From Candidatus Ventrimonas merdavium (GTDB taxonomy: Bacteria; Bacillota; Clostridia; Lachnospirales; Lachnospiraceae): 64,000 nt of DNA. A program made the position numbers and the translations under genes. Each line of letters starts with the position of its first letter. The first letter of the stretch is position 1. Under the pieces are notes generated by a model. That model was not told the origin of the DNA. It saw only the letters and a list, made by a program, of their open reading frames with translations, and made no database searches. The stretch is taken from positions 48 through 64,047 of the forward strand of contig DVLJ01000236.1 in the NCBI GenBank assembly GCA_018715565.1, in the 5' to 3' direction. Positions 27,913 through 61,791 of the stretch are shown in pieces.

Positions 27913-27977
27913 GGAGCTAACCTGTGCGGCTGTTCAGCCGCAGACGATTTCCATTGAAAAAACTGGGAGGATCTCTC

Positions 27978-41300: not shown

Positions 41301-41564
41301 GCTCATGGCGCCGCCGGAAACCTGCTTACTTAAAGCCGCCGCGGCTTTTTTGTCCTTGGCGTACACCAGGATCCCGCTTACAGGCTTGTCTAATCTGTGG
41401 ATAACTCCCACATAGGGCTCGCCGGATTTTGGGGATAACTTGTGTATATGCCGGCGGATCTCGCTCACCATATCCGCGCCGAAGCCCCGGCTGGACTGGG
41501 ACTCCATGCCCACCGGCTTCCAGACCACGATCACGGATGCGTCTTCATAAAGAATCTCTAACAT
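38367..41564 (-). CDS. In-frame fusion: RluA-family pseudouridine synthase (N-terminal) and DMSO-reductase-family molybdopterin oxidoreductase (C-terminal)
   Basis: aa 1-265: VGVIHRLDKPVSGILVYAK, TGRHHQIRVQMA and QLSFTHPVTGKEL (RluA/RluD family). A molybdopterin-oxidoreductase body follows with no stop (NNCGGRCLLYAHVKDGKIVRM..., ...ILWSHNPAET..., C-terminal molydop_binding-like barrel). An internal ATG at 40760 is preceded by AGGAA. Confidence 0.7.
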   Translation of the reverse strand: MLEILYEDASVIVVWKPVGMESQSSRGFGADMVSEIRRHIHKLSPKSGEPYVGVIHRLDKPVSGILVYAKDKKAAAALSKQVSGGAMSKKYLAVLCGKPAQNVDNYVDYLLKEEKENRSRIVDKGITGAKQAKLRLRSLETRTVEPYGELTLAEVTLFTGRHHQIRVQMAGHGLPLWGDNRYNPMFGGTAGSGSGRSAAPAEAGGLRTPAGAGNLTPLAGPGGLTPPARYRRPTVALAAWQLSFTHPVTGKELRFERKPEGSIFQEFAMLSPEPQGSASQEQIIPTTGRNNCGGRCLLYAHVKDGKIVRMTTETQKDAEAAGCPFPLTACARGLNYHKTFLGEDRLRWPMKRVGERGEGKFQRISWDEAVDIIAREWIRIRDTYGPGSRYVNYATGVSALLRPAQLAKRLLSLDGGYLDYYNSYSTACIRHATKLMYGTYETGNDRADWLNSKLLILWSHNPAETVFDGDSMFYLRKAKEQGIPIIVVDPRYSDTARELDAEWIPLRPATDSALLDAMAYVIVSEGLQDQDFLDRYCLGFDKEHMPEGVDPSLCYRSWLMGEQDGVEKTPEWAEAITGVEAETIRSLARRYALARPAALIQGYGAQRHAYGEQSARGAILLACLTGNVGISGGWAGGVAVCTRHQNPRFPMPENPYPMKIPVFLWTDAVERGHAMTELDGVIADQGRLHLDSDIKMILNLAGNTLINQHSDINRTAALLKDTKKCEFIVCSDLFMTASARFADILLPGISMLECENITMPWQNGDFVGFTNQVTEPLYEGRFEYDWLAEVADRLGLKEAFTEGRTAGEWLRYCYEELRKSEPELPEYEILKEKGVYRYRENPPAIAFSEQRADLEHHPFPTESGKIEIFSKQVYETRFSAFFPPIPRYVAPPEGPQDPLARRYPLQLIGWHTKRRCHSIHDNNRSMDRLDPQRLWIHPEDAAERGIGDGELAVVWNDRGEIRIPVKVTDRICKGVTALSQGAWYRPEKSVQEASVTEGGEKELSGSGQDCAETEMSAPSQDRPGNARFPADLGGSINVLTSWEPTPYAKGNPQHTNLVQVRRFTR

Positions 41565-41692
41565 CGTCTGTTCCTTTTTTCTTAAATTTTTCCCCGGGAC
41601 TTGCATTTTTTGTTCCGCAGGTGTATAGTATAGAAAATGATATTACGTAGTTTTTAAAACTACATGTTATAGTTTTATGAGGAGATGGTTTT

Positions 41693-42343
41693 ATGACATT
41701 TAAGATCAAAGACCCCGGAAGCGCTCTGACCCACTTTATCGCCATGGTCCTGGCCCTGTGCGCCTCGGCCCCCCTGATCATCAAGGCGGCCCAGTCCCCC
41801 GGCTCGATCCATGTGCTGGCGCTGTCCATTTTCATCACCAGTATGGTCTTATTATATGCGGCGAGCACCGTATACCACACCCTGGATATCTCCCCTAAGG
41901 TCAATCAGATCCTGCGGAAGGTCGACCACATGATGATCTTTATCCTGATCGCGGGCACCTACACGCCGGTATGCCTGCTGGTCCTGGGGGACCGCACCGG
42001 CTGGGCGCTCCTGGCCTTAGTCTGGGGGATCGCCGTGGTCGGGATGGTGATCAACGCCCTGTGGATCACCTGCCCCAAGTGGTTCTCCTCCCTGATCTAT
42101 ATCGCCATGGGCTGGGTGTGCATCCTGGCCTTCGGCAAGATCGTAGCCGCCCTGCCCCGGACCGCCTTCATCTGGCTGCTGGCCGGAGGGCTGATCTACA
42201 CCGCAGGCGGCGTGATCTACGCCCTGAAGCTGCCTGTGTTCAATGCACGGTTCAAGTATTTCGGCTCCCACGAGCTGTTCCACTTATTCGTCATGGGCGG
42301 CAGCTTCTGCCATTATGTGATGCTCTACAACTTTGTGGCCTGA
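41693..42343 (+). CDS. Hemolysin-III / PAQR-family membrane protein
   Basis: 216 aa, 7 TM helices, conserved HxxxH-type end (ELFHLFVMGGSFCHY) and DHMMIF motif. GAGGAGA RBS. Confidence 0.85.
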   Translation: MTFKIKDPGSALTHFIAMVLALCASAPLIIKAAQSPGSIHVLALSIFITSMVLLYAASTVYHTLDISPKVNQILRKVDHMMIFILIAGTYTPVCLLVLGDRTGWALLALVWGIAVVGMVINALWITCPKWFSSLIYIAMGWVCILAFGKIVAALPRTAFIWLLAGGLIYTAGGVIYALKLPVFNARFKYFGSHELFHLFVMGGSFCHYVMLYNFVA

Positions 42344-42651
42344 CAGAGCTCCGCTGGGTCCTGGCCCGGCTTTTGCTCTGTCTCCGGATATCCGCAGGGC
42401 TGCGTCTGGCTTGCCGCCAGGCGCAGCTTTTCTGTGCGGCTTAGCTGCTTGATGGCCCATTCCCGCCGCATGGCCTCCTGCTTCGTGGGGAATTCCTCAT
42501 AATAGACCAGACGGACCGGGCGGCGGCTCTTGGTGTACTTGGCGCCCTGCCCGGCGTTGTGGGCCTCCACCCGCTCCTTTAAATGGTTGGTCCAGCCGCA
42601 GTAGAGGCTCCCGTCCGCGCACTGCACCAGATACGTATAGTTCTTCTCCAT
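42325..42651 (-). CDS. GIY-YIG nuclease-family protein (UPF0213 type)
   Basis: YTYLVQCADGSLYCGWTN...RVEAHNAGQGAKYTKSRRPVRLVYYEEF...A.RREWAIKQLSR. GGAGAAGGAGA RBS. Confidence 0.8.
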   Translation of the reverse strand: MEKNYTYLVQCADGSLYCGWTNHLKERVEAHNAGQGAKYTKSRRPVRLVYYEEFPTKQEAMRREWAIKQLSRTEKLRLAASQTQPCGYPETEQKPGQDPAELCQATKL

Positions 42652-42729: not shown

Positions 42730-42900
42730 GTCTCCTTTCCGGTCCTTATGTAAGCGGCGGCAGTCGTCTGCAGTTCTCCCGCGCCGCCTCAGGCTGCCCT
42801 GAATCTATTGGAAGCACCAGCTGTATGCGGATTTTCCGGCTTGCATCGTGTTCCCAGTCATTCGGAGGGTCCGGACCGTTATAGGATAGTATATCCGTAA

Positions 42901-49461: not shown

Positions 49462-50391
49462 TTACAGGATCACGATCTCCTTCGTCTCTTCCCGTCGCTT
49501 GAGCACCTGCACGTACTCTCTGGCCATGCGGATCAGGCAGTTGATGCTGTGGCTGCGGTAAACCCCTTTCTGGATCAAAATGACGTCATATATCTGAAAA
49601 CCATCCACCCAGTTCAGCTCTACCAGGCCCATCTGTCTGACCTTCGGGACGCAGACGTAAGGAATCAGGCAGATCCGGTCCCCTTCCTGGACGGTGTTGA
49701 TCACCGCATGGATGCTTCCCAGGAACAGCTCCGAGGATGGTCTGGATCCGCTTTGCGTCAGACAGCGGCGGAATTCATCCGTAAAACAGCAATCCTCATA
49801 GGTATAGGAAAAATTCTGCCTGTCCAGATCGCTCATCCGGACTTCCTTTTGCCTGGCCAGAGGATGATCCGGCGACACCATCAGGCAAAGCCGTTCTTCA
49901 AACAGCGGGACCGTCTGCTGTCCGTCATCGCCTGCCTGCGGATCCAATGTCTGGACAAAACCGATGTCCACCTCATTCTGGTTCAGCCATTCCGGTACTC
50001 TGGCACAGCAGATCGCATTGACCTTTAAGCTGATATCCTGCCGTTTCGTTTCCACGTCCACAAAGAACTCCCCGAAGGAAAAGCCTACCATCAATTCTCC
50101 TCCGGCGACCCGGATGCTTCCAATGGTCTTCACCTGCTGGAACTCATTCTGGACCTTAAAATAAATGCTCAGCATTTCATCCGCATAACGCATGAACCGC
50201 TTTCCATCGCAGGTCATTTCGATCTTCCCGCTGCGGTATTCCACCAGCTGAGTCTGAAGCTCGTCCTCCAGGGCATGGATATGCTTTGCCAATGTGGAAG
50301 GCGCATAGTTCAGCTTTTCGGAAGTTTTCAGGTAGTTCTTTTCCTGCACCAGCGTCATAAATGTAATAAGCTGCTTCGTATTCATGATCAA
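49462..50391 (-). CDS. LysR-family transcriptional regulator
   Basis: N-terminal HTH LITFMTLVQEKNYLKTSEKLNYAPSTLAKHIHALEDEL plus a LysR substrate-binding domain. Confidence 0.85.
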   Translation of the reverse strand: MIMNTKQLITFMTLVQEKNYLKTSEKLNYAPSTLAKHIHALEDELQTQLVEYRSGKIEMTCDGKRFMRYADEMLSIYFKVQNEFQQVKTIGSIRVAGGELMVGFSFGEFFVDVETKRQDISLKVNAICCARVPEWLNQNEVDIGFVQTLDPQAGDDGQQTVPLFEERLCLMVSPDHPLARQKEVRMSDLDRQNFSYTYEDCCFTDEFRRCLTQSGSRPSSELFLGSIHAVINTVQEGDRICLIPYVCVPKVRQMGLVELNWVDGFQIYDVILIQKGVYRSHSINCLIRMAREYVQVLKRREETKEIVIL

Positions 50392-50455
50392 TTACCCGTA
50401 AGAAAAAGCATCCATTGGGAAATGGATGCTTTTGCCTTTTCTTTTCTGTAAGAAA

Positions 50456-52495
50456 CTATTTTGCGTCAGCGATCACGGTCTCACCCGCTAATTTACCGAA
50501 TACAACCGTATCGACCACCGCGTTTCCGCCTAAACGGTTCGCACCGTGGATCCCTCCGGTAACCTCGCCTGCCGCGTACAGACCGGCGATCGGAGCCCCT
50601 GACTCATCCAGCACGCGGGCCTCGGTATCGATGCTGACACCGCCCATGGTGTGATGGATACATGCCTGACGGGCAGTGGCAACCCAGGGACCATTCTCCA
50701 GCTTGGTGGTGTACAGAGTTCTTCCGAACTCATCCGCCGCGCCGTCCACGCTTGCATTGAAATTATCTACGGTAGCTTTTAAGGTGTCTGCGTCGCATCC
50801 CAGCTTCTCAGCCATCTCATCCAAAGTATCTGCTACTAAAATATAACCGTTTTCTTCCAGATAGTCAAATGTAAATCCATCTGCGGAACGCCATTCCGGA
50901 TCGGCAATATCCACATAGCCGGGACCGTCTGCAGATTCCAGCATATAGAACATGGAATCGGTCTGTCCCATAACGGCCAGGCAGATCTCGTCGCGGCGGC
51001 CATCCTCTCTTACGAAACGCTCGCCTTCTTTGTTGATGAAGATGATCTGGTCCGTTCCGTTTACGTCACGAGGCGGATATTTGGTCAGCTGTCCGTCCTT
51101 AACATTGCCCAGATACAGAAGCTGGATCTGCTCCATATCGGTTAAGCCGGCGCCTGCCTCCAGAGCCATCGTGATGCCGTCGCCCTGAGAGCTGCTGAAA
51201 CGGTTGGTGGTCATGACTTTGCTCAGGTCATTCCATTTGCCGGAGGTATTGTACTCCTGGACCATCTTGCTGTTGGCTGCAAATCCGCCTGTTGCCAGTA
51301 CAACGCCCATTCCTGCGTCTACGGTAAATTCGTTGCCGGCTTTGTCCTTACATACAACGCCGACCACTCTGCCGTCTGCATCCTGGACTAATTTTTCTGC
51401 AGTGCTGCTGGTAAGGATGGTGATCTTGTCATTCTCCGCGATCTGCTCTACGTAAGTAGACATAAATCCGGTGCCCATCTGCATGGTACTTGTATGGGTC
51501 CGCTGCCACAGGGCGCCTGCGCCCTGGCCGATGACATCGCTGAATTCCATCCCCAGGGATTCGATCCATTCCAGGCCGTCATAGGAATCGTAGCAGAGTG
51601 TCTTTACCAGGTCCAGATCCGCCACCTTATCGCCGTTGATCCAGGTCTGCAAAGCGTACCATTCTTTGGTATCGAACAGGTCGGTCCTGCCGGATGCTTT
51701 ATATTCATCCCACTGTGCCTGGACCTCCTTCTGCAGCGCCGCATGGGCTTCATCCACCGGCTCCTCTGCCAGTGCGCTCTCGATCGTTGCCTTTACCGCG
51801 TCGGTCATGGTCACCTGGCTCTGGAGCGCTTCGTTCGGCGTATTGTAGATCGCGCCGCAGACCAGGGTATCGCCGCCCACGGAACCATTTTTCTCAACCA
51901 CCACAACGCTGGCCCCGCCTTCTGCCGCGGAGATCGCCGCTGCCAGTCCGGCTCCGCCGCCGCCCACGACTACCACGTCCGCGCTCTGATCTGCCTGTGC
52001 TTCCGCCGGCACCTCTGCCTGCCAGTCGTCCAGGTTCGCCCCTGCCTGGGTCAGGCAGTCCTCCACTGCCTTTTTCACTGCGGCAGAGGTGATGGTCGCG
52101 CCGGTAACCGCGTCAACATTCAAGGTCTGATACTCCACGATCTGCTCTGGGATCAGCGTGACCGGCGTCTTTCCGCCCTCATACAGTTCCTCGCCGGCAG
52201 CATTTTTCAGCGGACCGCCGATACCCGGAGTCTCCGATTCCTTGGTCACATCCACGGAAATGATCGCATCCTCGCTGACTTCCACACTGACCTCGACCTT
52301 GTCATTCATCCCCTGTGTGGAAGCAGTGTAGGTTCCGGCCTTCATCCCGCCGCCGGCGCCCTCCGCAGCTGTTTCCTGTACGGTGGTCTCCTGCGCGGTG
52401 GTCTCAGGCGCCGCTGTTTCCGCCGTCGGGGAAGAACAGCCTGCAGCACTTAAAGCAACACACAGTCCTGTCAACAATAATCGCTTCTTTTTCAT
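50456..52495 (-). CDS. Extracytoplasmic lipoprotein flavin reductase: FMN-binding domain plus FAD-dependent fumarate/urocanate-reductase-like flavoprotein
   Basis: Lipobox LSAAGCSS. Flavinylation-type motif NVDAVTGATITS. FAD Rossmann VVVVGGGGAGLAAA. Active-site block CIHHTMGGVSID and C-terminal AAGEVTGGIHGANRLGGNA. Confidence 0.85.
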   Translation of the reverse strand: MKKKRLLLTGLCVALSAAGCSSPTAETAAPETTAQETTVQETAAEGAGGGMKAGTYTASTQGMNDKVEVSVEVSEDAIISVDVTKESETPGIGGPLKNAAGEELYEGGKTPVTLIPEQIVEYQTLNVDAVTGATITSAAVKKAVEDCLTQAGANLDDWQAEVPAEAQADQSADVVVVGGGGAGLAAAISAAEGGASVVVVEKNGSVGGDTLVCGAIYNTPNEALQSQVTMTDAVKATIESALAEEPVDEAHAALQKEVQAQWDEYKASGRTDLFDTKEWYALQTWINGDKVADLDLVKTLCYDSYDGLEWIESLGMEFSDVIGQGAGALWQRTHTSTMQMGTGFMSTYVEQIAENDKITILTSSTAEKLVQDADGRVVGVVCKDKAGNEFTVDAGMGVVLATGGFAANSKMVQEYNTSGKWNDLSKVMTTNRFSSSQGDGITMALEAGAGLTDMEQIQLLYLGNVKDGQLTKYPPRDVNGTDQIIFINKEGERFVREDGRRDEICLAVMGQTDSMFYMLESADGPGYVDIADPEWRSADGFTFDYLEENGYILVADTLDEMAEKLGCDADTLKATVDNFNASVDGAADEFGRTLYTTKLENGPWVATARQACIHHTMGGVSIDTEARVLDESGAPIAGLYAAGEVTGGIHGANRLGGNAVVDTVVFGKLAGETVIADAK

Positions 52496-52581
52496 GATAC
52501 TTCCTCCTTTATCATGTGATTGATAATATTATAACATACTATCCCTGCGCCCAACTCACACTAAAAGGATTTTCTGTCTCA

Positions 52582-54390
52582 CTATTCCGTCAGACCGTCG
52601 ATCTCCAGGATCTCTTCCAGCACCAGAACCTCCACCCCCTCCGTCTTTCCCTTCAGCCGCACCTCCCCCAGAGATGTGGCGCGGATCCGGCCTTCCAGGC
52701 GGTCGGCCACGACCCGGGAAAGATAGATCGTACCGCCAGGAGCGCTGGATTCCAGGCGGGAAGCAGTGTTCACGGTATCCCCGATCGCGGTGTAGTCCAT
52801 CCGGTCCGGAGAACCGATATTGCCTACTACGGCTTTTCCCGCATGGATCCCGATCCCAAAGGATACCTGGCGGCCATACTGCGCCATCAGCTCCCGGGTC
52901 AAAAGTCCCATCCCCCGCTTCATATCCGCCGCAGCCCGGACCGCATGCATCACATGATCCTCCTGGGGGACCGGAGCGCCCCAGAAGGCCATGGCCGCAT
53001 CCCCGATGAATTTATCCAGCGTGCCGCTGTTGGAAATGATGCAGTCTGAGATCAGCGTCAGATACCGGTTCAGGATCTCTACTACCACCGTGGGCTCCAG
53101 GCCTTCTGACATGGATGTAAAGCCGCGGATATCCACGAACAGCACCGCGATATCCATCACCTGGCCGCCCACCTCTAAGCGGCCGTGCTCCTCCTTTTTC
53201 AGGACCTCGTCCACGATCTCCGGGGCTACATACCGGCGGAACGTCTGGGTCACCAGACGCTTTTCCAGCACGGAACGGAAATAGTGGGCCGCGATGCAGC
53301 CTACATAGCACACGCCAACTCCCAGGGGGATCCACAGCACGTTCAGCACCACGCCCTGTCCGTACATCCATTTCGTCAGCAGGAGATATCCGGCTTCGAT
53401 CCCCAGGAAGGAAACGGTCGCCACCCACAGACGGCGCTTCCAGAACAGGACCATACAGCAGGCCAGGGCGGCGAACAGCAACGCCAGCTGAGGCTGCGCT
53501 CCCAGCTCTGTCTTATACTGCCCATTTAACAGGGCCTCGATCATGTTGGCCTGATACTCCACCCCATACATGGGCATGGCGTGATCCGCGGCCGTTACAT
53601 AGCTGTCCTGGAGTCCCGCCGCATACGCCCCGATCAGCACGATCTTCCCGTCAAAATAGTCCGGCGGCACCGTGCCGGTCAGCACATCCGAGACGGCGAT
53701 CGACTGGCTGTAATCCCCCGGCTTCCCGGTAAACGGCACATACCAGAAGCCCCGGCTGTCCGTGGGCGGCGACGTCAGCTCCAGAATCCCCTGGTCCCGG
53801 CAGTACAGCCGGACCGCCTGGGCCGCAAAGGAGGGGACCGTCCGTCCATCCGGCAGGCGCACCTCCCACAGTCCATGGCGGAGGACCCCGTCCTCATCAA
53901 ACATGGCATTGATATGGCCCTGGACCGTGGCCTCCTTAAGGGCCGGATAAGGCTCGTCATAGGCCTGGACGGAAAATGGTTCCAGATAGGAATTCCCATC
54001 CAGCTCCTCCAGTCCGCTCCCAAACTCTGCCGCCGAGGCAGTGACCACATTTCCGTACATCCCAGCCGCCTCTGCCAGCCAGGCGTCCCCGGCCGGCTCC
54101 CGGTTCCCCGCATACAGCACGTCGATGCCGATCACCGCAGGCCGGCACTCCTCCGACTGGTTCAGCGTCTCCAGGGTCATAGCCATGACCTCCCGTCCCC
54201 AGTCTGCGAACGGACCGATGGTATCCAGCGCCTGCTGGTTGATCTCCACCAGCACGATCTCCCCGCCGGACGCCGACCTCTCCTGATACCAGGCGTCTGC
54301 CAGGATATGCTCCTGCACGTCTAAGATCCCAGAAGCGGCGATCAGGGTCATCCCCGCCGCCGCTCCGATCCCAGCAAGCCAATATCTCAT
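52582..54390 (-). CDS. CHASE2-domain membrane-bound class III adenylate cyclase
   Basis: N-terminal TM and a roughly 300-aa CHASE2-like ectodomain (VLVEINQQALD...IGIDVLY), then three TM helices. Cyclase core VLFVDIRGFTS, LDKFIGDAAMAFWG and DYTAIGDTVNTASRLES (Lys/Asp pattern, so ATP). ATG at 54390 overlaps the upstream stop by 1 nt. Confidence 0.85.
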   Translation of the reverse strand: MRYWLAGIGAAAGMTLIAASGILDVQEHILADAWYQERSASGGEIVLVEINQQALDTIGPFADWGREVMAMTLETLNQSEECRPAVIGIDVLYAGNREPAGDAWLAEAAGMYGNVVTASAAEFGSGLEELDGNSYLEPFSVQAYDEPYPALKEATVQGHINAMFDEDGVLRHGLWEVRLPDGRTVPSFAAQAVRLYCRDQGILELTSPPTDSRGFWYVPFTGKPGDYSQSIAVSDVLTGTVPPDYFDGKIVLIGAYAAGLQDSYVTAADHAMPMYGVEYQANMIEALLNGQYKTELGAQPQLALLFAALACCMVLFWKRRLWVATVSFLGIEAGYLLLTKWMYGQGVVLNVLWIPLGVGVCYVGCIAAHYFRSVLEKRLVTQTFRRYVAPEIVDEVLKKEEHGRLEVGGQVMDIAVLFVDIRGFTSMSEGLEPTVVVEILNRYLTLISDCIISNSGTLDKFIGDAAMAFWGAPVPQEDHVMHAVRAAADMKRGMGLLTRELMAQYGRQVSFGIGIHAGKAVVGNIGSPDRMDYTAIGDTVNTASRLESSAPGGTIYLSRVVADRLEGRIRATSLGEVRLKGKTEGVEVLVLEEILEIDGLTE

Positions 54391-55892
54391 CACACCTCTT
54401 GTCCTTCCTCCAGGGAGCGCTCCTGCTTTGGCTCCTCCCAGCAGCGGCTGGCCGCGAACATCCGCACCAGCCCGATATCCAGCTTCCGCTCCTTTTCCGC
54501 CATCTCCATCAAAACCTCCAGCGCCTGCTCCACCGGGATCCCCTTTTTGTAGGGCCGGTCTTTGGCGATCAGGGCTTCAAATACATCTAACAGGGTGATG
54601 ATCCGTACCTCCATGGGGATCTGATCCCCCCGGAGCCCTTTCGGATACCCGCTCCCATCCAGCATCTCGTGGTGGCCGGCCGCCCATTCCCGCACATGGG
54701 AATACTCTTTGGGAAATTCTACCTCCGCCAGGAAACGGTCCGTCAGCACCACATGGTCCTGCATGATCCGCCGCTCCTCTGCCGAGATCGTCCCCTTCCG
54801 GGTCTGCAGCGCGCCGCATTCCTCCTGGGTCAGCCATGGGAGCTCCCTGCCGGCTTCATCCGTAAACCGCTTCTCTCCCAGCTCCCGGACCTGGCCAGCC
54901 AGGTCGTCCGGCAGGAAGCCGATCCGGTTGACCGTATCCACCAGCTTCTGGGCCTGGGCCGTCTCTGTCTGGATCTGGCGCCAGGTTTCCTGATCAGACC
55001 GCCCTTCCAGATAGGCCAGTCTCGCCAGCAGACGGACCTCCTTCAGCCGCCCCTTCACCTCCGCGTACTGGACCGGGCTCAGCCGGGCGTTCTTGTTCAT
55101 GATCTCCAGGGGAGTCACGATCTTCCCGATGTCGTGGAGCCAGATGCTCATCAAAAGCTCCTCCCGGTGGGCTTTGGAGAACAGCACCCCCTTCCCGCTC
55201 CTTCTGGCCACCCGGTTCATATAAGTCAGGAACCGCTCGCCATATACCGCCATGTTCCGGGTATGGGACGCATTATAGGGCGTCCGGGCGTCGATGGCCG
55301 AGGAGGTCATGCGGACAAAGGACTGGATCAGCCCCTTGACCTCGCTGATATACCTGGAATTCTGGATCGTGATCGCCGCCTGGGAAGCCACCGATTCCAC
55401 GGCCAGCACCATCTCCTCGGAAAAACCGCAGACCGCCCCCGTCTCATCCATGGCGTTGATCAGCTGCAGGACTCCCAGCCGCTCTCCCGTCCGGTTCCAA
55501 AGAGGCGTTACCAGCAGCGATTTGGTATGATATCCCGTCATGGCGTCATAGCGGGCCGGGCCGGAAAAATCATACGTCTCACAGTTGCGCACGTCCTCTA
55601 CCAGGATCGTCCGCTTATCCAGCAGGGCCATGGCGCAGACATTGCGCCGGGTGAGGGGCACCGGCGGCAGGCCGCTCCCCTCCCAGTCCGCTCCCCTGCC
55701 GGGATCCATCGACTTATTCTTCATAAACTGGAACTTCAGATGCTCCCCCTCCAGCAGATACAGGGTCCCCGCATCACACCGGGTCAGCTCCATCACCTGC
55801 TCCAGGATCGTCTCCAACAGCTTGTTGAAATCCTTTTCCATAGACAGTGATACGCCGATCTCTAATATCTGCCGCATTTCTTCCTGTGTCAT
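54390..55892 (-). CDS. GAF-domain HD-GYP phosphodiesterase
   Basis: N-terminal GAF (LTRCDAGTLYLLEGEHLKF...LVTPLWN...GVLQLINA). HD-GYP core IWLHDIGKIV...HHEMLDGSGYPKGL. Start at the ATG at 55892. Confidence 0.85.
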   Translation of the reverse strand: MTQEEMRQILEIGVSLSMEKDFNKLLETILEQVMELTRCDAGTLYLLEGEHLKFQFMKNKSMDPGRGADWEGSGLPPVPLTRRNVCAMALLDKRTILVEDVRNCETYDFSGPARYDAMTGYHTKSLLVTPLWNRTGERLGVLQLINAMDETGAVCGFSEEMVLAVESVASQAAITIQNSRYISEVKGLIQSFVRMTSSAIDARTPYNASHTRNMAVYGERFLTYMNRVARRSGKGVLFSKAHREELLMSIWLHDIGKIVTPLEIMNKNARLSPVQYAEVKGRLKEVRLLARLAYLEGRSDQETWRQIQTETAQAQKLVDTVNRIGFLPDDLAGQVRELGEKRFTDEAGRELPWLTQEECGALQTRKGTISAEERRIMQDHVVLTDRFLAEVEFPKEYSHVREWAAGHHEMLDGSGYPKGLRGDQIPMEVRIITLLDVFEALIAKDRPYKKGIPVEQALEVLMEMAEKERKLDIGLVRMFAASRCWEEPKQERSLEEGQEV

Positions 55893-55958
55893 AGATGTAT
55901 CACCATCCCTTCCATTGCAACGTTCCCGCTCCTGTCTTAAGATCATCCGGCGGCTCCG

Positions 55959-56924
55959 TCACCGGGGGATGATCCATATTTTCTTCAAAAAATGGTCGCA
56001 GACATACAGATCCCCGTCCCGCACCATCAGCCCTCGGGGCTCCACCGGAAATGCTTCCATCCCCGGCTGATCCGCAGCTGCCAGTGTGGTCACAGTGCCT
56101 CCGGCGATCCTGCGCACCGCACTGTTGCCCGTATCCGCCACATACACCGTTCCATCCGGCGCCGCTGCCACGCCCTGGGGATTGGACATCTGGGCCTGCA
56201 TCGCGTCCCCATCAGCCATCCCCGCCGCACCGCTTCCCGCCAGCACGGAGACCGCGCCGTCTGTGATCGTCAGGATCCGGTTCGCCCCCGACTCCGCCAC
56301 ATACAGGACGCCGTCCTTCCAGCAAAGCCCGGTAGGCTCCGACAGCCCTGCCGCGTAAGTGGTGATCGTTCCCGTAGGCGTAAGCCGCCGGATGGCATTG
56401 TTGCCCGTATCTGCGATATAGAGGTTCCCTTCTCCGTCCGCCGCCAGCCCCGTGGGACGGCTGAAGGCAGCGTCTAACCCGTAACCGTCCGCCGAACCTC
56501 CCTGGATCGTCCCTGTAGCAGTCTGGATCTTATTATCGCCGCAGCGGATCAGACGCACCACGTTATTTTCCGTATCAGTCACCGCATATCCGTCCAGAAA
56601 TGGAGCGATCGCCCAGGGCTCCCGGAAAAATCCCTCGTTCAGAGCTCCGTCGTTGTATCCGCCGGACGGCTCTCCGTACAGATCCTGCACGCCGCCGTTT
56701 CCTGCATAAAGGGTGCTGGTCCTTCCGCTCACCTTCCAGACCACCTTGTTATAGGTATCCGTCACCAGAAACGAACCATCCTCCAGGGATACGATCCCGG
56801 AGGGGGCACAGATCACATCCATGGCGCTCTCTGCTGCCGCCGCCGGAAACGCCGCGGCCCCGGTCAGGCAGGCGGCCGTCAGCATCGCCGCAAGTCTTTT
56901 CCATCTCTGTTTTCCTGTTCTCAT
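55959..56924 (-). CDS. Secreted NHL-repeat beta-propeller protein
   Basis: Signal peptide ...TGAAAFPAAAAES. Six repeats of the type G.LYVADTGN.A.RR.. (for example LYIADTGNNAIRRL and VYVADTGNSAVRRI). Confidence 0.75.
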   Translation of the reverse strand: MRTGKQRWKRLAAMLTAACLTGAAAFPAAAAESAMDVICAPSGIVSLEDGSFLVTDTYNKVVWKVSGRTSTLYAGNGGVQDLYGEPSGGYNDGALNEGFFREPWAIAPFLDGYAVTDTENNVVRLIRCGDNKIQTATGTIQGGSADGYGLDAAFSRPTGLAADGEGNLYIADTGNNAIRRLTPTGTITTYAAGLSEPTGLCWKDGVLYVAESGANRILTITDGAVSVLAGSGAAGMADGDAMQAQMSNPQGVAAAPDGTVYVADTGNSAVRRIAGGTVTTLAAADQPGMEAFPVEPRGLMVRDGDLYVCDHFLKKIWIIPR

Positions 56925-56928
56925 GCTG

Positions 56929-59900
56929 TTATGCCTCCGTTCCTTCCTGATCTATGGGGTCCTCGTCTTCCAGTCTCCGGCCGCCGTTCCCGGCGCCAGA
57001 ACCGCCGCTCCGGCTGTCATCCTGCCGCTGGTCTGAGCGGCCTGCGCCGGACGGTCTTTCTTCCGTCTTGGCAGCATTCGCCCCTAGGACTTGCCTGATG
57101 TCGGAGCCGGAGCCATCGGGCGTATCCGTCTGATCCAAGGTTTGCCCTGTCTTTGTCTTTTCTCGGTCCTGTGGATCCGATCCCTTCTGAAGAGCCAGGG
57201 GATCGCTCTGCCAGTTTGACGGGCTGGCCTTCTCCGCTCCTTCTCCCCTCTCATCCTCCTCCAGATCCCAGTTGGAGCCTGAAGCGACGGTCCAGTTGGA
57301 ATCCGAAGCCAGTTCCTCGTCCAGGATCAGGAAGCGGGCAGGGTTGATGCGAAGGTAATAGTAGCCGCCGTCCTGCTCGATGCGATAAACATCGTCATCC
57401 GGGTTGTACTGCTTCCTATTCAGCTGCAAGACGTTCTCGCTTTTGGCCTTGATGACCGTGCCCAGTTTATCTGCGGCAGGGAAATTCACACTGTCCACTT
57501 CTTCGCAGACCCAGTTGATCGCCGGCCCTTCTCCCTGTGAAGCGATCGTCCCGCCGCCTAACCGCAGAGTCATGCCGGCCGACTGGATATAGATCACTCC
57601 ATCCTCTGCTCTCTCAGACTGGATCAGACTTCCGCCTCCCTCCGGCTCCCATCCCTCCGCATACGGACTTAGATCGCCGTCCCAATCCATTGCCAGGGTC
57701 ATATGCCCCTTCACCAGATCCACGGCTTTCTGAGATTCCGCAGTGACCTCCGATCCTTCCAATGCCAAAACATCAAACGTACTGCCCTCAAATCGGAATA
57801 CCGCGTCTCTTATCTTGTCATTCTCCTGAGATCCTGCATCCATGGCTCTGACATCCGCATACGTTTCCGTATCCTCCCCGGAAAGCAGCGGCCACGGCCA
57901 ATCAGACGGCCACCACCACGGCGGCTCTGATCCTCCCTCATCTGCGCCTCCGCCTTCTGTCTCTCCAGGATCTTCGGATCCCCCGTCCCCATCTGCAGCC
58001 GTTACAACAACATCTGTCAGCGTGATGGTATTGTTTTGGGTTTTCGTCAATTCTGCGGCAGAGGACGCGGTCAGATCCAGCTTTGCGCTTTCCCAGCTGC
58101 AAGTATTCTCCTCAGAACCATCCAGGACCAGCACAACCGAATTCTGCAGGGCCAGCTCCGCACCGCTCATATTCACGGTATTGTGGTTGGAATTATTCTC
58201 CAAGCGCACCGCAATGGAATCCTTCAGGGTCATGACCGCGCCGTCCAGGGATATCTCATTCCCTTCCACAGCGCTGCCGCAGATCACCACGGAGCCTTGT
58301 TCCGCCTGCACATCCTGGCTATAGAATCCCGCCTGGTTCGCTCCTGTCCCGGAAAGCTCCACGCCCACTGCGCTCCCTGCCAGATACAGCTTCGACGCAT
58401 CTTCCCAGACTGCCTTTCCTCCATCCAGCAGCTGTACCGCCGCAGACTGATCAGCCGCCTGGACCGTGGTCCCATCGCCAAATGTCACGGCAGCTCCGCC
58501 TTTTGCCTGTACGCCGCAGACGCCGTTCCTGACGAAAAGCATGGTATCCTCCAGGACAACCTCTGTACTGGCGGAGTTTCCCTGGGCTGCTTCCGCTGTG
58601 ATCAGCGCGATACCGGTCCCACGTTCCGAGCCGCTCTCCATATCGACTTCCAGCGTACTGCCAGAGATGGACAGCTGGCTTCTGTCCCCGGCGCTGATCA
58701 GGCTGCCGCTGTCAGCTCCGTCTGCCGGAATACTTCCGCAAATATAGGAATTGGTGATCCCGCATATAGCCGTCTGACTATCCGCGGCGCTTGTCTCGAG
58801 CAGAGACATCCCCCCGTCTATCGTCAGACCGTCCAGAAGCAGGGTTCCATGATTTTCTAATCTTCCATCCGGATCGATCGTCAAAGTCCCAGGCTCTGCC
58901 CCATCCATCGCCTCAGGACCAGCGGATCCCTGGGCATGCTCCTGTCCCCCTGTGATCCTCAGGGCTCCGGTATCTGTTACCACCAGCGGACATTCCAGGG
59001 TCAGGGAATAGCCCCCCAGATCCAGACCGACCGGGTTCTCTGCCGTACCTGCGGACACCTGGCAATCCGGATCCGTTCCGCCGGACAAAGCCTCGATCAC
59101 TGCGTCCTCCTCCAGCACCACGGTCGTTCCTTTCTCTGCCTCGGACAGGGCAGTCCTCACGTCTGCGAAGATCTCCTCCAACCGGATCTTTCCATCCACG
59201 ATGCTGCAGCCCGGCAGGTTTGCGGAGGTGACATCCGTAGGAACGCCGCCCTGCACGATCGCAAGGGAAGAAGTGCTCTGCCCTGCAGGCAGATCGAACA
59301 GGCTGGCCGCGGAAGCCGCCTGAACGGTGGTGCCATCCAGATCCAGGGTGATCTTCCCTGCGGCTTCTCCTTCGATGGAGATCGCCGTTCCATTGCCGCC
59401 ATCGATACTGCCGCCATGCACCGTCACTTCTGCCGTGCTCCCTGCAGGCATGGACAGCGCCGCGCACGCCTCGCTCCCGATCAGCGCTCCCTGGGTCATG
59501 GTAAACTGGCCGCCGGATAAACGGGTCCCGCCATTGATCGCGCCGCCGGATACCGTCACCGCACCGGCCGTCTGCTCCAGGCCGGCTACCTCGCCAGTCC
59601 CCTCTACCGAAAACGTGCCGCCGGATACTGCCGCCCCCTGGGCTAAGGTGCCTCCGGTGACCGCAGCCGTTCCTGCCTTATGCTCCAGCTTCCGGCTGAC
59701 CGTTCCGCCCTGCACCTCCAGGGTCCCGGCCTGCTGGTCCAATTCCGGAAGCTCTCCGCCTGCAAGCACCAGTCTGGCGTTATCCCCGCTCTGGGTAATC
59801 AATCCTGACTGGCCGCCGTCTACGGTAAACGCGCCGCGGTTGGCCACCGCCGCACCGGTTCCATCCTCCCGCTGCAGGCTTCCTCCGTTCTCTACCGTTC

Positions 59901-61410
59901 CATCATTTTCCAGGGCATCGGTCACCACCAGGCTGCCGGTCTGGATGGTCAGAGTCCCGGTATTCTCCACCGTACCGGCGATGATCCGTCCGGTATTCTC
60001 GATGGTCCCGTCGTTGACAAACACGCCGCCCACCTGGAAGGTGTTCATACTGGTATTGGTGATGGTCCCGTGATTCTCCATATCTCCCGCCAGGTCCAGG
60101 GTCCCGTCGATCTGCAGGGTCTGCCCGGCGTTGACGTCCAGATGCACGCCGTCCTCCATGGTCAGCGTCCTTCCCTCCGGCACCGTTACCGGTACGTCGA
60201 TCTGCAGCGTGTTGTACGCAGCATCACCGGCTCCCGCCTTGATCACCACATCCTTCGTCTGAAGGAGGGCGTCCACCTCCGCCGCCGTCACCTGCATGGT
60301 CAGCTCTGCCGTGGTCTCGTCCGGCTCCTCCGGATCGGTGGGAACATCCGGCTCCTCTGGCGTATCCGGTTCCCCTGGCGTATCTGGTCCATCCGGCGTA
60401 TCTGGCTCTTCCGGCGTACCCGGCTCCTCCGGTGCGGAAGGCCCATCCGGTTCCGAGGGAGTTCCCTGGCTGCCGCCGGAGCTGCCGCCCGATCCGCTGC
60501 CGGAACCGCCCGATCCGCCGCTATGGCTGTCACTTCCCGCCGTCACAGAGTTTGATCCTTGATCCTGGAATACCGGATCCACCGTCACCTGGTTTGCCTG
60601 GTTCCGGATCTGCTCCTGGATCGCCGCCAGCTTATCGTGGAGCTCCTTCTGGTCTGCGGCCAGCTTCTCCCAGGCTCCGGCCGTGATCTGGCCCACATCC
60701 TGCCCGGAAGCGGCCGCGATCTTCTGCTGGAGGGCTTCATCCTCAGCTACCTCCACGCAGACAAAGCCCGGCACCTCAGACGCGTCAAACGTCCTCAGCA
60801 CCGCGCTGCACCGGCTTGCATGGCCGCTGCCATACACATAAAAATCGGCCATCTGGCCGCTCCCCACCGAGATCTGCCGGATCTGCCCCGTCACCGGATC
60901 GGACACCGCGCTCTGCACGGAGCCTTCCAGGATATAGACCTGGGTGTGCCCGCCGTCGATCACCTGCACCCATCCGGCTGTTCCCCGGATCCCGGTCACC
61001 ATGGTCGAGGTGCGGATATCTAAGGTCTCGTCTCCCTCCAAGGGCTCGGTCACATGGAAGAACAGGTTTCCTGACTTCAGCAGCAGTTCCAGCTTTTTGT
61101 CCTTCTTCCGGACCTCCGCCTCACTGACCGCATCCAGCTTGGTCAGCTTGGAATCATCCAATGAGATCCACGCATAGCTTGCTTCCTGTGTCGCCGCCTG
61201 ATAGCCGCTGTAAAGCTGCATATCCGCAAATACCGGGAGAGACCTCCCGTTCTGGTTCGTCACGCTTACCGTGCCTTCCGTCTTCGTCAGGCGCAGCGTG
61301 CTGGCTGACGCCGCGGCCTCCTCTCCCCTTGCCAGAGTCACATTGCTGCATACCATACACACCGATAAGATCACCGCTGCGATCTGTCTGTACCTTCTTC
61401 TTGCGTCCAC
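56929..61410 (-). CDS. 1493-aa secreted protein: FecR-like domain, GS/Pro-Glu linker, long Gly/Thr-rich beta-helix-type repeats, acidic tail
   Basis: GTG start with GGGGAA RBS and an N-terminal hydrophobic helix. FecR-like block EGTVSVTNQNG...LLLKSGNLFFHV...VTGIRGTAGWVQV. About 900 aa of degenerate G-T/S-V repeats resembling autotransporter passenger repeats. No LPXTG, SLH or C-terminal TM recognised. Confidence 0.75.
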   Translation of the reverse strand: MDARRRYRQIAAVILSVCMVCSNVTLARGEEAAASASTLRLTKTEGTVSVTNQNGRSLPVFADMQLYSGYQAATQEASYAWISLDDSKLTKLDAVSEAEVRKKDKKLELLLKSGNLFFHVTEPLEGDETLDIRTSTMVTGIRGTAGWVQVIDGGHTQVYILEGSVQSAVSDPVTGQIRQISVGSGQMADFYVYGSGHASRCSAVLRTFDASEVPGFVCVEVAEDEALQQKIAAASGQDVGQITAGAWEKLAADQKELHDKLAAIQEQIRNQANQVTVDPVFQDQGSNSVTAGSDSHSGGSGGSGSGSGGSSGGSQGTPSEPDGPSAPEEPGTPEEPDTPDGPDTPGEPDTPEEPDVPTDPEEPDETTAELTMQVTAAEVDALLQTKDVVIKAGAGDAAYNTLQIDVPVTVPEGRTLTMEDGVHLDVNAGQTLQIDGTLDLAGDMENHGTITNTSMNTFQVGGVFVNDGTIENTGRIIAGTVENTGTLTIQTGSLVVTDALENDGTVENGGSLQREDGTGAAVANRGAFTVDGGQSGLITQSGDNARLVLAGGELPELDQQAGTLEVQGGTVSRKLEHKAGTAAVTGGTLAQGAAVSGGTFSVEGTGEVAGLEQTAGAVTVSGGAINGGTRLSGGQFTMTQGALIGSEACAALSMPAGSTAEVTVHGGSIDGGNGTAISIEGEAAGKITLDLDGTTVQAASAASLFDLPAGQSTSSLAIVQGGVPTDVTSANLPGCSIVDGKIRLEEIFADVRTALSEAEKGTTVVLEEDAVIEALSGGTDPDCQVSAGTAENPVGLDLGGYSLTLECPLVVTDTGALRITGGQEHAQGSAGPEAMDGAEPGTLTIDPDGRLENHGTLLLDGLTIDGGMSLLETSAADSQTAICGITNSYICGSIPADGADSGSLISAGDRSQLSISGSTLEVDMESGSERGTGIALITAEAAQGNSASTEVVLEDTMLFVRNGVCGVQAKGGAAVTFGDGTTVQAADQSAAVQLLDGGKAVWEDASKLYLAGSAVGVELSGTGANQAGFYSQDVQAEQGSVVICGSAVEGNEISLDGAVMTLKDSIAVRLENNSNHNTVNMSGAELALQNSVVLVLDGSEENTCSWESAKLDLTASSAAELTKTQNNTITLTDVVVTAADGDGGSEDPGETEGGGADEGGSEPPWWWPSDWPWPLLSGEDTETYADVRAMDAGSQENDKIRDAVFRFEGSTFDVLALEGSEVTAESQKAVDLVKGHMTLAMDWDGDLSPYAEGWEPEGGGSLIQSERAEDGVIYIQSAGMTLRLGGGTIASQGEGPAINWVCEEVDSVNFPAADKLGTVIKAKSENVLQLNRKQYNPDDDVYRIEQDGGYYYLRINPARFLILDEELASDSNWTVASGSNWDLEEDERGEGAEKASPSNWQSDPLALQKGSDPQDREKTKTGQTLDQTDTPDGSGSDIRQVLGANAAKTEERPSGAGRSDQRQDDSRSGGSGAGNGGRRLEDEDPIDQEGTEA
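60359..60430. repeat. In-frame 18-bp tandem repeat (4 units) encoding the Pro/Glu/Asp linker of the giant protein
   Basis: GGCGTA recurs at 60359, 60377, 60395 and 60413. It encodes EEPGTP-EEPDTP-DGPDTP-GEPDTP. Confidence 0.7.
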
Positions 61411-61482
61411 TGCAGATTCCCCGCCTTTTCCTGTTTTGTAAAATGATGATTGTCTCTATTTCCCAACAATACGCTGATGGTC

Positions 61483-61491
61483 ATTATAACA
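61483..61491 (-). promoter_or_regulatory. Candidate extended -10 promoter of the FecR/NHL/HD-GYP/cyclase operon
   Basis: On the minus strand: TGtTATAAT in an AT-rich spacer about 70 nt upstream of the GTG start. The -35 is weak. Confidence 0.35.
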
Positions 61492-61791
61492 TAAAAAAAA
61501 TGTGCAGAAAAGGTCTAATACTTTCGACTTTTCTAAAATCAGGAAGATATTTTACGGAAATCTGGCATTTTATCGACCTGCTCCAATTATGGAGCATCCA
61601 TCCGGCCGGACCTGCCAGAAAACGGCAGGAAAAATGCCGCTGGAAACGGCACTGGAAACGGCGCTGCCAAGGGACTCTGCCAAACGGCGCCGGCCCTGTT
61701 CCGGAAGCCGTTTCCCAAATGAACAGCCTTATGCTATACTGATAGGCAGAACCGGATCTCGTTTATTATCTCAAAGGAAGGAGCATCATTT

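Follow-up and report, generated by a model that had tools for sequence, protein, structure and literature searches.

What would a giant exported protein, an NHL propeller, a cytoplasmic GAF-HD-GYP enzyme and a CHASE2 receptor cyclase have to do with each other in a Gram-positive anaerobe? This question is raised by four adjoining genes on the minus strand of a stretch of 64,000 nucleotides from the Lachnospiraceae bacterium Candidatus Ventrimonas merdavium (contig DVLJ01000236.1), which is referred to as the window. On comparison with related genomes, the locus is a copy of a cassette conserved in Clostridia and centered on a CHASE2 receptor adenylate cyclase. In the preferred reading, to which a probability of roughly 0.55 is assigned, the giant protein would serve through its FecR-like head as an antenna that modulates the CHASE2 cyclase, with or without the help of the NHL propeller, and the cyclic adenosine monophosphate (cAMP) produced would act via the GAF domain to switch an HD-GYP phosphodiesterase acting on cyclic diguanosine monophosphate (c-di-GMP). 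New are the Gram-positive cassette itself and its giant surface proteins, which combine a conserved FecR head with very variable bodies; a literature search found no description of the cassette in Firmicutes, nor of CHASE2 in Clostridia or Firmicutes. An initial annotation of the locus, made from the bare sequence, knew of no characterized system that joins these parts in a Gram-positive. This stands as far as the Gram-positive cassette is concerned, whereas the nucleotide relay has precedents in Tlr0485 and Lcd1 and the FecR/CHASE2 pairing has precedents in other phyla.

The open reading frames (ORFs), their tight packing in one direction and the domains named in the initial annotation were all recovered. 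The four genes, in the order of transcription, are the following.

56929-61410, minus strand: gene 1, giant exported protein, 1493 amino acids, GTG start
55959-56924, minus strand: gene 2, NHL protein, 321 amino acids
54390-55946, minus strand: gene 3, longest ORF of the GAF-HD-GYP enzyme, 518 amino acids; preferred start ATG 55892
52582-54393, minus strand: gene 4, CHASE2 cyclase, 603 amino acids; overlapping ATG at base 54390

The stop codon of the giant gene is separated by 4 nt from the ATG of the NHL gene, and the TGA of the HD-GYP gene overlaps the ATG of the cyclase gene by 1 nt (TGATG, base 54390). Between the NHL stop and the GAF-HD-GYP start lie either 12 nt (ATG 55946) or 66 nt (ATG 55892), of which the latter is the better value because ATG 55892 has the better ribosome-binding site (GGAAGGGA) and agrees with the starts of homologues. 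The junctions thus read as they had been given initially, with gaps of 4 nt and 66 nt and a 1-nt overlap.

The evidence for a cassette comes from a scan in which each species was represented by one genome and the query was an alignment of the cyclase with its relatives; the best 80 of 583 genome hits were analyzed. To annotate the ORFs of these loci, profiles were derived from the proteins of the window and from first-round matches, and partners were counted at those 49 of the 80 loci that offer at least 6 kb of upstream and at least 4 kb of downstream sequence. The 80 cyclase loci are distributed over Lachnospiraceae, Oscillospiraceae and other Clostridia, and the highest identity to the window cyclase is only 63%. 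Beside the cyclase, the following partners were found, MBL standing for a metallo-β-lactamase-type enzyme.

FecR-head protein: 37/49 (76%)
GAF-HD-GYP enzyme: 31/49
GAF-GGDEF or MBL-GAF-GGDEF enzyme: 11/49
any GAF-linked c-di-GMP enzyme: 42/49 (86%)
RNase Z/Apyc1-like MBL hydrolase: 40/49 (82%)
NHL propeller: 14/49 (29%)
FecR head together with a GAF-linked enzyme: 32/49
FecR head together with NHL and GAF-HD-GYP: 9/49
none of these partners: 1/49

The co-location of the four families, for which the initial annotation had proposed a comparison of gene neighborhoods, is therefore found in relatives, nine of the 49 loci having FecR, NHL and GAF-HD-GYP together at the cyclase. Pfam-annotated contexts, which are independent of the cassette profiles, agree with these partners. 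The gene order is reshuffled among species (M-GH-F-C, M-GH-F-N-C, F-C-MGD and others, with M for the MBL, GH for GAF-HD-GYP, F for the FecR-head protein, N for NHL, C for the cyclase and MGD for the triple fusion MBL-GAF-GGDEF), the genes remaining co-directional and abutting. The commonest single order is M-GH-cyclase; one locus (L091) has the MBL, the GAF-HD-GYP enzyme, the FecR giant, the NHL protein and the cyclase in this order, and the exact four-gene order of the window recurs in the strain-level relatives L094 and L095. In its composition the window is unusual, FecR, NHL and GAF-HD-GYP without the MBL being met at only one of the 49 loci; neither an MBL homologue nor an additional copy of the cassette was found in the 64 kb. 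The MBL enzyme of the relatives shows sub-threshold similarity to RNase Z, to a "cyclic nucleotide-degrading phosphodiesterase" and to Apyc1, and is probably a cAMP-clearing hydrolase. Approached from the side of the FecR head, nine of 18 metagenome loci with flanks, a redundant sample, carry the cyclase, and two more carry the MBL and GAF-HD-GYP genes. The link between head and cyclase is strong but not obligatory.

The CHASE2 assignment of gene 4, made initially without profiles, is backed by a match far above the cut-off (PF05226, amino acids 15-310, E 4.6e-40, 138.2 bits versus a cut-off of 26.3), and the Guanylate_cyc domain follows with E 1.2e-25 and 91 bits. Hydropathy gives an estimate of hydrophobic segments at amino acids 6-24, 299-317 and 349-367 and of a weaker one at ~322-345, that is, the CHASE2 topology with one N-terminal transmembrane (TM) segment and three clustered C-terminally. 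The protein is laid out as follows.

amino acids 6-24: TM1
up to amino acid ~300: CHASE2 ectodomain
amino acids ~299-367: three TM segments
amino acids 413-585: catalytic domain

The residues D421, D465, K461, T535, N542 and R546 are invariant in 21 cyclase homologues. The metal-binding Asp pair D421/D465 and the transition-state residues N542/R546 align with solved cyclases, and the specificity pair K461/T535 could be read from the alignment to CyaB (3r5g) and Cya2 (2w01/6fht). K461 lies in DKFIGD, where the wild-type guanylate cyclase Cya2 has DEFMGD and where both the adenylate-cyclase chimera 6fht and CyaB have Lys; T535 lies in MDYTAIGD, corresponding to MDYTIIG of CyaB. Because the specificity pair is Lys/Thr, the enzyme is classified from this alignment as a predicted class IIIb adenylate cyclase; Asp in the place of Thr would mark class IIIa, and Glu/Gly-Cys is what guanylate cyclases have. 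The pair had been given as Lys/Asp in the initial annotation, which needs correction on this point, the ATP-type specificity being retained. CyaB of Pseudomonas aeruginosa (3r5g) resembles gene 4 in its catalytic domain (E 2e-30) and in the same Lys/Thr pair (DKF.GD, MDYT.IG), and differs from it in the sensor/membrane module upstream of the catalytic domain, which is MASE2 in CyaB.

The enzyme encoded between the surface proteins and the cyclase has the following parts.

54390-55892, minus strand: GAF-HD-GYP gene from its preferred start ATG 55892
55332-55892, minus strand: GAF domain (Pfam GAF, E 7e-16)
~54447-55331, minus strand: HD-GYP domain (Pfam HD_5, E 9e-30)
54807-55064, minus strand: family-specific insert of ~85 amino acids (~295-380) between the HD and HHE..GYP halves

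These matches, along with a hydropathy scan in which no TM segment was found, accord with the cytoplasmic GAF plus HD-GYP enzyme of the initial annotation. The best sequence matches in the PDB are V-cGAP3 (5z7c, E 2e-21) and PmGH (4mcw, E 5e-19). The HD-GYP motifs HDIGK, QDH, HHEMLDGSGYP and LDVFEAL...DRPYK are present here as well as in at least 95% of 46 family members, and by this conservation the domain is predicted to be catalytically competent. At the position of Glu185, the third-metal ligand in PmGH, a Tyr is found (PYNASH), as in V-cGAP3; this implies a putative binuclear-type site instead of the trinuclear subtype and still allows membership in the HD-GYP family. The insert of ~85 amino acids is poorly conserved in sequence, is present in 46 of 46 cassette HD-GYP family members and is absent from PmGH.

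When a profile of the cassette GAF domains was compared with the PDB, it matched cyclic-nucleotide-binding GAF domains almost exclusively. The 21 best matches (E 4e-41 to 1e-9) are cAMP- or cGMP-binding GAF domains plus PmGH, in the order CyaB2 (cAMP, E 3.9e-41), PDE5 (E 7e-39), PmGH, PDE10 (E 8e-19), PDE2 (E 8e-17), PDE6 and Lcd1 (cAMP; GAF structure 5w10, E 1.5e-11), and GAF domains with other ligands (DevS, haem, bilin) score only at E>4e-4. A motif D-x-x-T-G-Y-x-T, which we take from PDE2A structures to be the phosphate/ribose motif, is invariant in the cassette GAF domains.

The output domain behind this GAF domain is exchanged among species. At 15 of the 80 loci, a GAF-GGDEF protein of ~337 amino acids or an MBL-GAF-GGDEF triple fusion of ~570 amino acids stands in place of the HD-GYP enzyme, the triple fusion being an architecture of which we know no earlier description; examples of the replacement are L068:11740-13464, L057:3004-4704 and L061:4611-5624, with 12 other loci. 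Because the same cyclase is coupled either to a c-di-GMP hydrolase or to a c-di-GMP synthase, each placed behind a GAF domain of the cyclic nucleotide monophosphate (cNMP) type, the cassette is most simply understood as a putative converter of cAMP into c-di-GMP signals. The relay from one nucleotide to another that the initial annotation had put forward gains comparative support from the GAF profile and from this exchange; its novelty is lost, since the step itself is known from Tlr0485 and Lcd1.

Tlr0485 of Thermosynechococcus vulcanus is a GAF-HD-GYP protein of the PmGH family, in which cAMP must be bound to the GAF domain for c-di-GMP to be hydrolyzed. It thus shares with gene 3 the two-domain architecture and performs the very relay step proposed here. 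Unlike the cassette enzyme, it is cyanobacterial and was studied as an isolated enzyme, and an operon with a CHASE2 cyclase or surface proteins was not described; the Clostridial family, moreover, has the insert between the HD and GYP halves, and the likeness to Tlr0485 described here is one of architecture. PmGH of Persephonella marina aligns with gene 3 over both the GAF and the HD-GYP halves and shares the HD, HHE..DG.GYP and D motifs. It differs by its trinuclear iron site with Glu185 and by lacking the insert, and the ligand of its GAF domain is not established. Lcd1 of Leptospira interrogans, a cAMP-activated diguanylate cyclase, corresponds to the sister cassettes that have GAF-GGDEF in the slot held here by GAF-HD-GYP; its output is of opposite sign (synthesis instead of hydrolysis), and its architecture is absent from the window. 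Bd1971 is listed beside these two as a further precedent for the relay.

The same enzyme could also be thought of as the degrading half of a pair that handles cAMP alone. It would then hydrolyze cAMP under feedback of the PDE2/PDE5 type, no second nucleotide would be involved, and the output would pass through a Crp-family-type cAMP receptor encoded elsewhere. This is considered unlikely. The window is devoid of the MBL that accompanies 82% of the relatives' cyclases, so that some enzyme must clear cAMP here; Campylobacterota CHASE2 clusters do carry a cAMP phosphodiesterase, and the HD superfamily includes cyclic-mononucleotide phosphodiesterases. However, all HD-GYP signature residues are kept, the closest solved relatives, V-cGAP3 and PmGH, act on cyclic dinucleotides, and we know of no HD-GYP enzyme that hydrolyzes cAMP. 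In most relatives a separate MBL adjoins the GAF-HD-GYP gene and would make a second cAMP hydrolase redundant, and the GAF-GGDEF proteins that occupy the same slot at 15 loci cannot degrade cAMP at all.

On the outside of the cell, the system would be represented mainly by the giant protein. The following features were located.

amino acids 1-27: cleavable signal peptide
60790-61296, minus strand: FecR-like beta domain (amino acids 39-207), the conserved head of the whole family
amino acids 215-272: helical stalk
60316-60522, minus strand: low-complexity Gly/Ser and Pro/Glu linker (amino acids 291-365)
60469-60522, minus strand: Gly/Ser tract
60346-60432, minus strand: Pro/Glu repeat, period 18 bp, 4.8 copies, 81% matches (Tandem Repeats Finder)
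57991-60315, minus strand: beta-helix-type body (amino acids 366 to ~1140)
57889-57924, minus strand: Trp cluster PPWWWPSDWPWP (amino acids 1163-1174), identical in the strain-level relative
57481-57855, minus strand: strain-variable cassette (amino acids ~1186-1310), a C-terminal module directly after the Trp cluster

The Gly/Ser tract, the 18-bp Pro/Glu repeat, the Trp cluster and the acidic, disordered tail had all been described for this protein initially and were found in place. AxA-type cleavage sites are conserved across the homologues of the giant protein, the FecR domain beginning about 10 amino acids after the signal peptide; an N-terminal signal-anchor model in the manner of the FecR transmembrane segment was discarded on account of these sites. 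When the first 300 amino acids are scanned alone, Pfam FecR (PF04773) matches amino acids 73-166 with 41.9 bits versus a cut-off of 24 (E 1.4e-10). The same family was not matched in the Pfam scan of the full-length protein, which reflects a filter and does not speak against FecR, because the head scanned alone gives the match. An AlphaFold model of the head has a predicted local distance difference test score (pLDDT) of 87, falling below 50 in the linker, and its best Foldseek matches are the C-terminal cell-surface signaling domain of PupR (6ovk_R, E 6e-7) and the anti-sigma protein BDI_1681 of the Bacteroidetes FecR type (4m0n, E 1.3e-6). By profile and by predicted fold, the FecR assignment of the initial annotation is upheld. 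In the model of the body, the first ~330 residues (amino acids 366 to ~700) reach a pLDDT of ~85-96 with short periodic strands, the remainder 30-70. All top Foldseek matches of the body are right-handed beta-helix proteins (PL6 lyases, Antigen 43, EtpA, SRRP, tailspikes), matched weakly, with a best E of 3.7e-4; the predicted beta-helix fold class is accepted for the body, and a specific family is not assigned.

The head has the same fold as the signaling domain of PupR, which binds the signaling domain of a partner receptor. In contrast to the FecR/PupR anti-sigma factors, the FecR domain stands here at the N-terminus of a giant secreted protein, a cytoplasmic anti-sigma domain and a TM anchor are missing, and neither an extracytoplasmic function (ECF) sigma factor nor a TonB-dependent transducer accompanies it, no gene for a sigma factor or transducer having been found beside it in the window. 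For these reasons the giant protein is a FecR-domain protein and not a FecR anti-sigma factor.

Apart from strain variants of 91-92% identity, the homologues of the giant protein have only their first ~290 residues in common, at 45-53% identity. Their bodies are mutually unrelated and consist of LRR_5/LRR_8, Flg_new or beta-helix modules or of NHL with SLH domains. An exhaustive search (E<=1e-30) yielded 786 FecR-head clusters at 50% identity, in which the head is always N-terminal and lengths extend up to 3706 amino acids. Variation is also seen between strains. The strain-variable cassette shares only 44-48% of its amino acids with its counterpart in L094 (9552-14036), in a mosaic with insertions and deletions, and the flanks and all neighboring genes are 98.5-99.9% identical at the nucleotide level. 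It looks like the product of recombination or of diversifying selection. Hypermutation as in diversity-generating retroelements was rejected as its source, since insertions and deletions occur and all residue types are affected. Conservation of the head alongside diversification of the exterior would be expected of a constant transducer-docking module that carries variable ligand-binding antennae. As a side observation, the homologues P0134, P0135, P0138, P0140, P0150 and P0154 end in a hydrophobic segment with a basic tail (e.g., AIPMAVAMLAGLMAIAPKL...KNRKER), which suggests a C-terminal membrane anchor or sorting signal; the window protein is without one.

Gene 2 encodes a protein with a Pfam NHL match (PF01436, E 1.9e-29), an N-terminal signal sequence (hydrophobic amino acids 11-29) and six repeats of the type PxG...DG.LYV.D..N..I that are readable in the sequence, four of them being caught by a simple pattern. 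These data agree with the secreted six-blade NHL propeller predicted initially. In relatives, NHL domains occur as C-terminal extensions of FecR-head proteins or in fusions with SLH domains, and FecR heads, NHL and SLH domains also meet within single polypeptides. The last strand of the NHL propeller in which some FecR-head homologues end resembles the end of the separate NHL protein of the window, and such homologues form a fusion/fission link between genes 1 and 2. Present at 29% of the loci, NHL is the partner most often missing; the fusions tie it to the FecR head, with which it co-occurs also away from cyclases. Thus, gene pairs of the FecR-LRR and SLH-NHL type (L092:9001-13347; L093:9001-15276) and a fusion FecR-Flg_new-LRR-SLH-NHL of 2091 amino acids at the L092/L093 loci are without a CHASE2 cyclase within 9 kb, from which it follows that the surface module of FecR head and NHL also exists on its own.

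This independence raises the question of whether the surface proteins and the cyclase are partners or only neighbors. In the latter case, FecR giant and NHL protein would constitute an adhesin or cell-wall module, and CHASE2 would sense something else directly. The solitary pairs and the FecR-LRR-SLH-NHL fusion would fit this explanation, as would the ~24% of cyclase loci without a FecR gene, the predominance of the order M-GH-cyclase and the adhesin-like nature of the bodies (beta-helix, LRR, Flg_new). It is nevertheless judged to be improbable, since 37 of the 49 loci, each a different species, have a FecR gene that points the same way as the cyclase gene and is no more than 9 kb upstream or 6 kb downstream of it, usually abutting it, despite the reshuffling of the cassette. 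Furthermore, the pairing of FecR with CHASE2 is met again, with other output domains, in Proteobacteria and Campylobacterota, and conservation of the head at 45-53% among proteins with unrelated bodies suggests that the head has a constant partner.

The precedents for this pairing deserve comparison, an exported FecR-domain protein being found beside the CHASE2 transducer at 37/49 of the Clostridial loci. A gene cluster of Campylobacterota, which comprises a CHASE2 adenylate cyclase, a phosphodiesterase, a FecR-domain protein and a TPR protein and was proposed to be one pathway, likewise unites a CHASE2 cyclase, a nucleotide phosphodiesterase and an exported FecR-domain protein. It differs from the window in being Gram-negative, in having an outer-membrane FecR protein, TPR instead of NHL, and a cAMP phosphodiesterase instead of a GAF-linked c-di-GMP enzyme, and it is a bioinformatic observation only. 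In the BiofilmReg operon of Burkholderia, and in a related case of two genes in P. aeruginosa PAO1, the gene of an exported LysM-FecR protein adjoins that of a CHASE2 histidine kinase; here, the FecR protein is small and bears LysM, and the output is by histidine kinase and response regulator, unlike in the window. In Sinorhizobium meliloti, the CHASE2 adenylate cyclases CyaD1, CyaD2 and CyaK perceive an external protein signal via the accessory envelope protein NsrA, a functional parallel to the cassette, albeit with an outer-membrane beta-barrel as the accessory protein and a Crp-type regulator as the output; the FecR-domain gene smc02177 of this bacterium belongs to the Clr regulon. For the envelope step from FecR to CHASE2, precedents are genomic only.

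According to the preferred reading, signaling would proceed in the following way. The giant protein would be secreted, and its N-terminal FecR-like head would dock on the CHASE2 ectodomain at the membrane, which is proposed by analogy with the FecR and PupR heads that dock on the signaling domains of their partners. The linker of Gly/Ser and Pro/Glu together with the beta-helix body would span the cell wall, and the body, different between species and even strains, would bind an external ligand or surface, aided by the NHL propeller. Binding would alter the activity of the cyclase and hence the level of cAMP. Eventually, cAMP would bind to the cyclic-nucleotide-type GAF domain and switch the HD-GYP phosphodiesterase, and the resulting change in c-di-GMP would be put out through c-di-GMP receptors encoded elsewhere in the genome. 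The relay can therefore not be called self-contained, as it was initially, given that these receptors must lie elsewhere and that the usual cassette adds an MBL that is absent here.

As for the identity of the second nucleotide, the exchange of HD-GYP against canonical GGDEF enzymes points to c-di-GMP as the probable choice. The alternative that it would be 3'3'-cGAMP (cyclic GMP-AMP) or another cyclic dinucleotide, the former having been offered in the initial annotation, is quite doubtful. The best solved match of the HD-GYP enzyme is indeed the cGAMP-specific V-cGAP3, and both have Tyr at the position of E185 of PmGH; PmGH is nearly as close, though (E 5e-19 versus 2e-21), and V-cGAPs also hydrolyze c-di-GMP-like substrates. 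Hypr GGDEF enzymes carry Ser where c-di-GMP synthases have the canonical residue, and the GGDEF enzymes of the sister cassettes, which disfavor cGAMP, retain GGEEF and the Asn/Asp pair of c-di-GMP synthases (FKxVNDTYGHNAGD) and not the Hypr Ser. The notion of a Pycsar-type anti-phage system, in which a cyclic nucleotide would be made upon infection, was discarded as highly implausible, since the matches of the catalytic domain to the PADLOC PycC models (best E 7.9e-32) cover only the generic class III fold and the relatives' MBL enzymes resemble the anti-Pycsar enzyme Apyc1 only weakly, whereas a Pycsar effector (cNMP-binding TM or TIR protein) was not found at the locus, the cyclase is a CHASE2 receptor with four TM segments and has Lys/Thr specificity for ATP, and the cassette is chromosomal, has housekeeping neighbors and is stable across species.

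Several points weigh against the preferred reading. The mechanism is built on comparison; the contact of the FecR head with CHASE2 and the enzyme steps are predictions, and we infer the physical interactions, the ligand, the nucleotide specificities and the direction of regulation throughout, just as we infer co-transcription from gene spacing alone. On the surface, motif and hydropathy scans of the giant protein found neither a recognizable wall or membrane anchor nor a C-terminal TM segment, as had been noted initially. About 40-50% of the head-anchored loci have no cyclase, FecR-head and NHL proteins also occur without a cyclase within 9 kb, and smc02177 of S. meliloti is not required for signal perception. 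The pairwise distances of the FecR heads do track those of the CHASE2 ectodomains (r 0.74; partial r 0.50 when the catalytic domain is controlled for), but this mirror-tree signal is weak and confounded by shared phylogeny, and it is not used as a main argument. In the GAF domain of the window, the NKFDE motif is incomplete (N-A...F...M-V); among the cassette GAF domains, Asn and Phe are invariant, and the HD-GYP subgroup has Ala for Lys and is without the Asp-Glu pair, whereas N-K is retained in the GGDEF subgroup. From the sequence, cAMP and cGMP cannot be told apart as ligands of this domain. Finally, neither a GGDEF gene nor a c-di-GMP riboswitch was found in the 64 kb, so that the use of c-di-GMP by the organism is assumed, and the MBL hydrolase was not found in the window either.

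With regard to transcription, the four genes are preceded by the following elements.

61411-61791: divergent upstream spacer, 381 bp
61483-61491, minus strand: extended -10-like element TGTTATAAT, a consensus match, 72 nt upstream of the GTG of the giant gene in the AT-rich proximal spacer

The G+C content is 45% in the spacer and 33% in its proximal 150 bp, compared with 61% in the operon; the AT-rich spacer of about 380 bp with an extended -10 that had been reported initially is thereby recovered. Rfam gave no match in the spacer at E<=1. A four-gene transcription unit is plausible, and read-through into the flavoprotein gene downstream would also be possible; a terminator hairpin was not found in the 86-bp gap behind the cyclase gene. 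A second TGTTATAAT lies ahead of this flavoprotein gene (52528-52536, minus strand) and shares the ATGTTATAAT context with the promoter-like site of the operon. The flavoprotein gene (50456-52495) encodes a flavocytochrome-c-like reductase of the lipoprotein type with FMN_bind and FAD_binding_2 domains, and is followed by the gene of a LysR regulator (49462-50391), a strong bidirectional hairpin being located at 50404-50433. Upstream, the cassette is adjoined by the divergent gene of PanE (start 61792). These flanking genes, namely those of PanE, AsnA, the LysR regulator and the flavoprotein reductase, are unrelated to signaling.

Elsewhere in the window, an ORF of 1079 amino acids (38367-41606, minus strand) combines PseudoU_synth_2 (amino acids 25-184) with a complete molybdopterin oxidoreductase (amino acids ~300-1069); either these are fused in an unusual way or two genes have been read as one. 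A hybrid histidine kinase (27924-30533, plus strand) consists of HisKA, HATPase_c and receiver domains behind an N-terminal region of ~480 amino acids without a Pfam match at E<=1e-4. At gathering thresholds, Rfam found no riboswitch for c-di-GMP or other ligands in the whole window, its sole family being the COG2827 RNA motif (RF02938, 53.3 bits) at 42747-42821 on the minus strand, upstream of a small ORF (42325-42651). A tRNA scan of the window found none. SipL, together with SpoIIID in the strain-level relative L094, marks a spore-forming organism of the Clostridium type.

CHASE2 is a widespread sensor domain, for most members of which the signal and its perception are not established, and its pairing with FecR has been noticed several times and, to our knowledge, never explained. 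The cassette, which is common in gut and rumen Lachnospiraceae and Oscillospiraceae, sets the whole path side by side, from the surface protein to the c-di-GMP enzyme and the usual candidate for the clearing hydrolase. It makes testable whether a FecR fold feeds CHASE2 and how Gram-positive anaerobes connect cAMP to c-di-GMP. The variable bodies of the FecR-head proteins and the strain-variable cassette suggest that the signal sensed is under diversifying pressure, which would bear on colonization and on the interactions of commensal Clostridia with phages or hosts. A more far-reaching proposal, put forward tentatively and with rather more doubt than confidence, is that of a Gram-positive counterpart of cell-surface signaling, in which giant wall-spanning FecR-head antennae with interchangeable bodies would report a ligand from host, diet, phage or neighbor cells to the CHASE2 cyclase, and GAF-HD-GYP or GAF-GGDEF enzymes would translate cAMP into a c-di-GMP decision. 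If true, a physiological route from ligand to CHASE2 domain would be known for the first time in a monoderm, and the FecR fold would have a direct role outside sigma-factor control.

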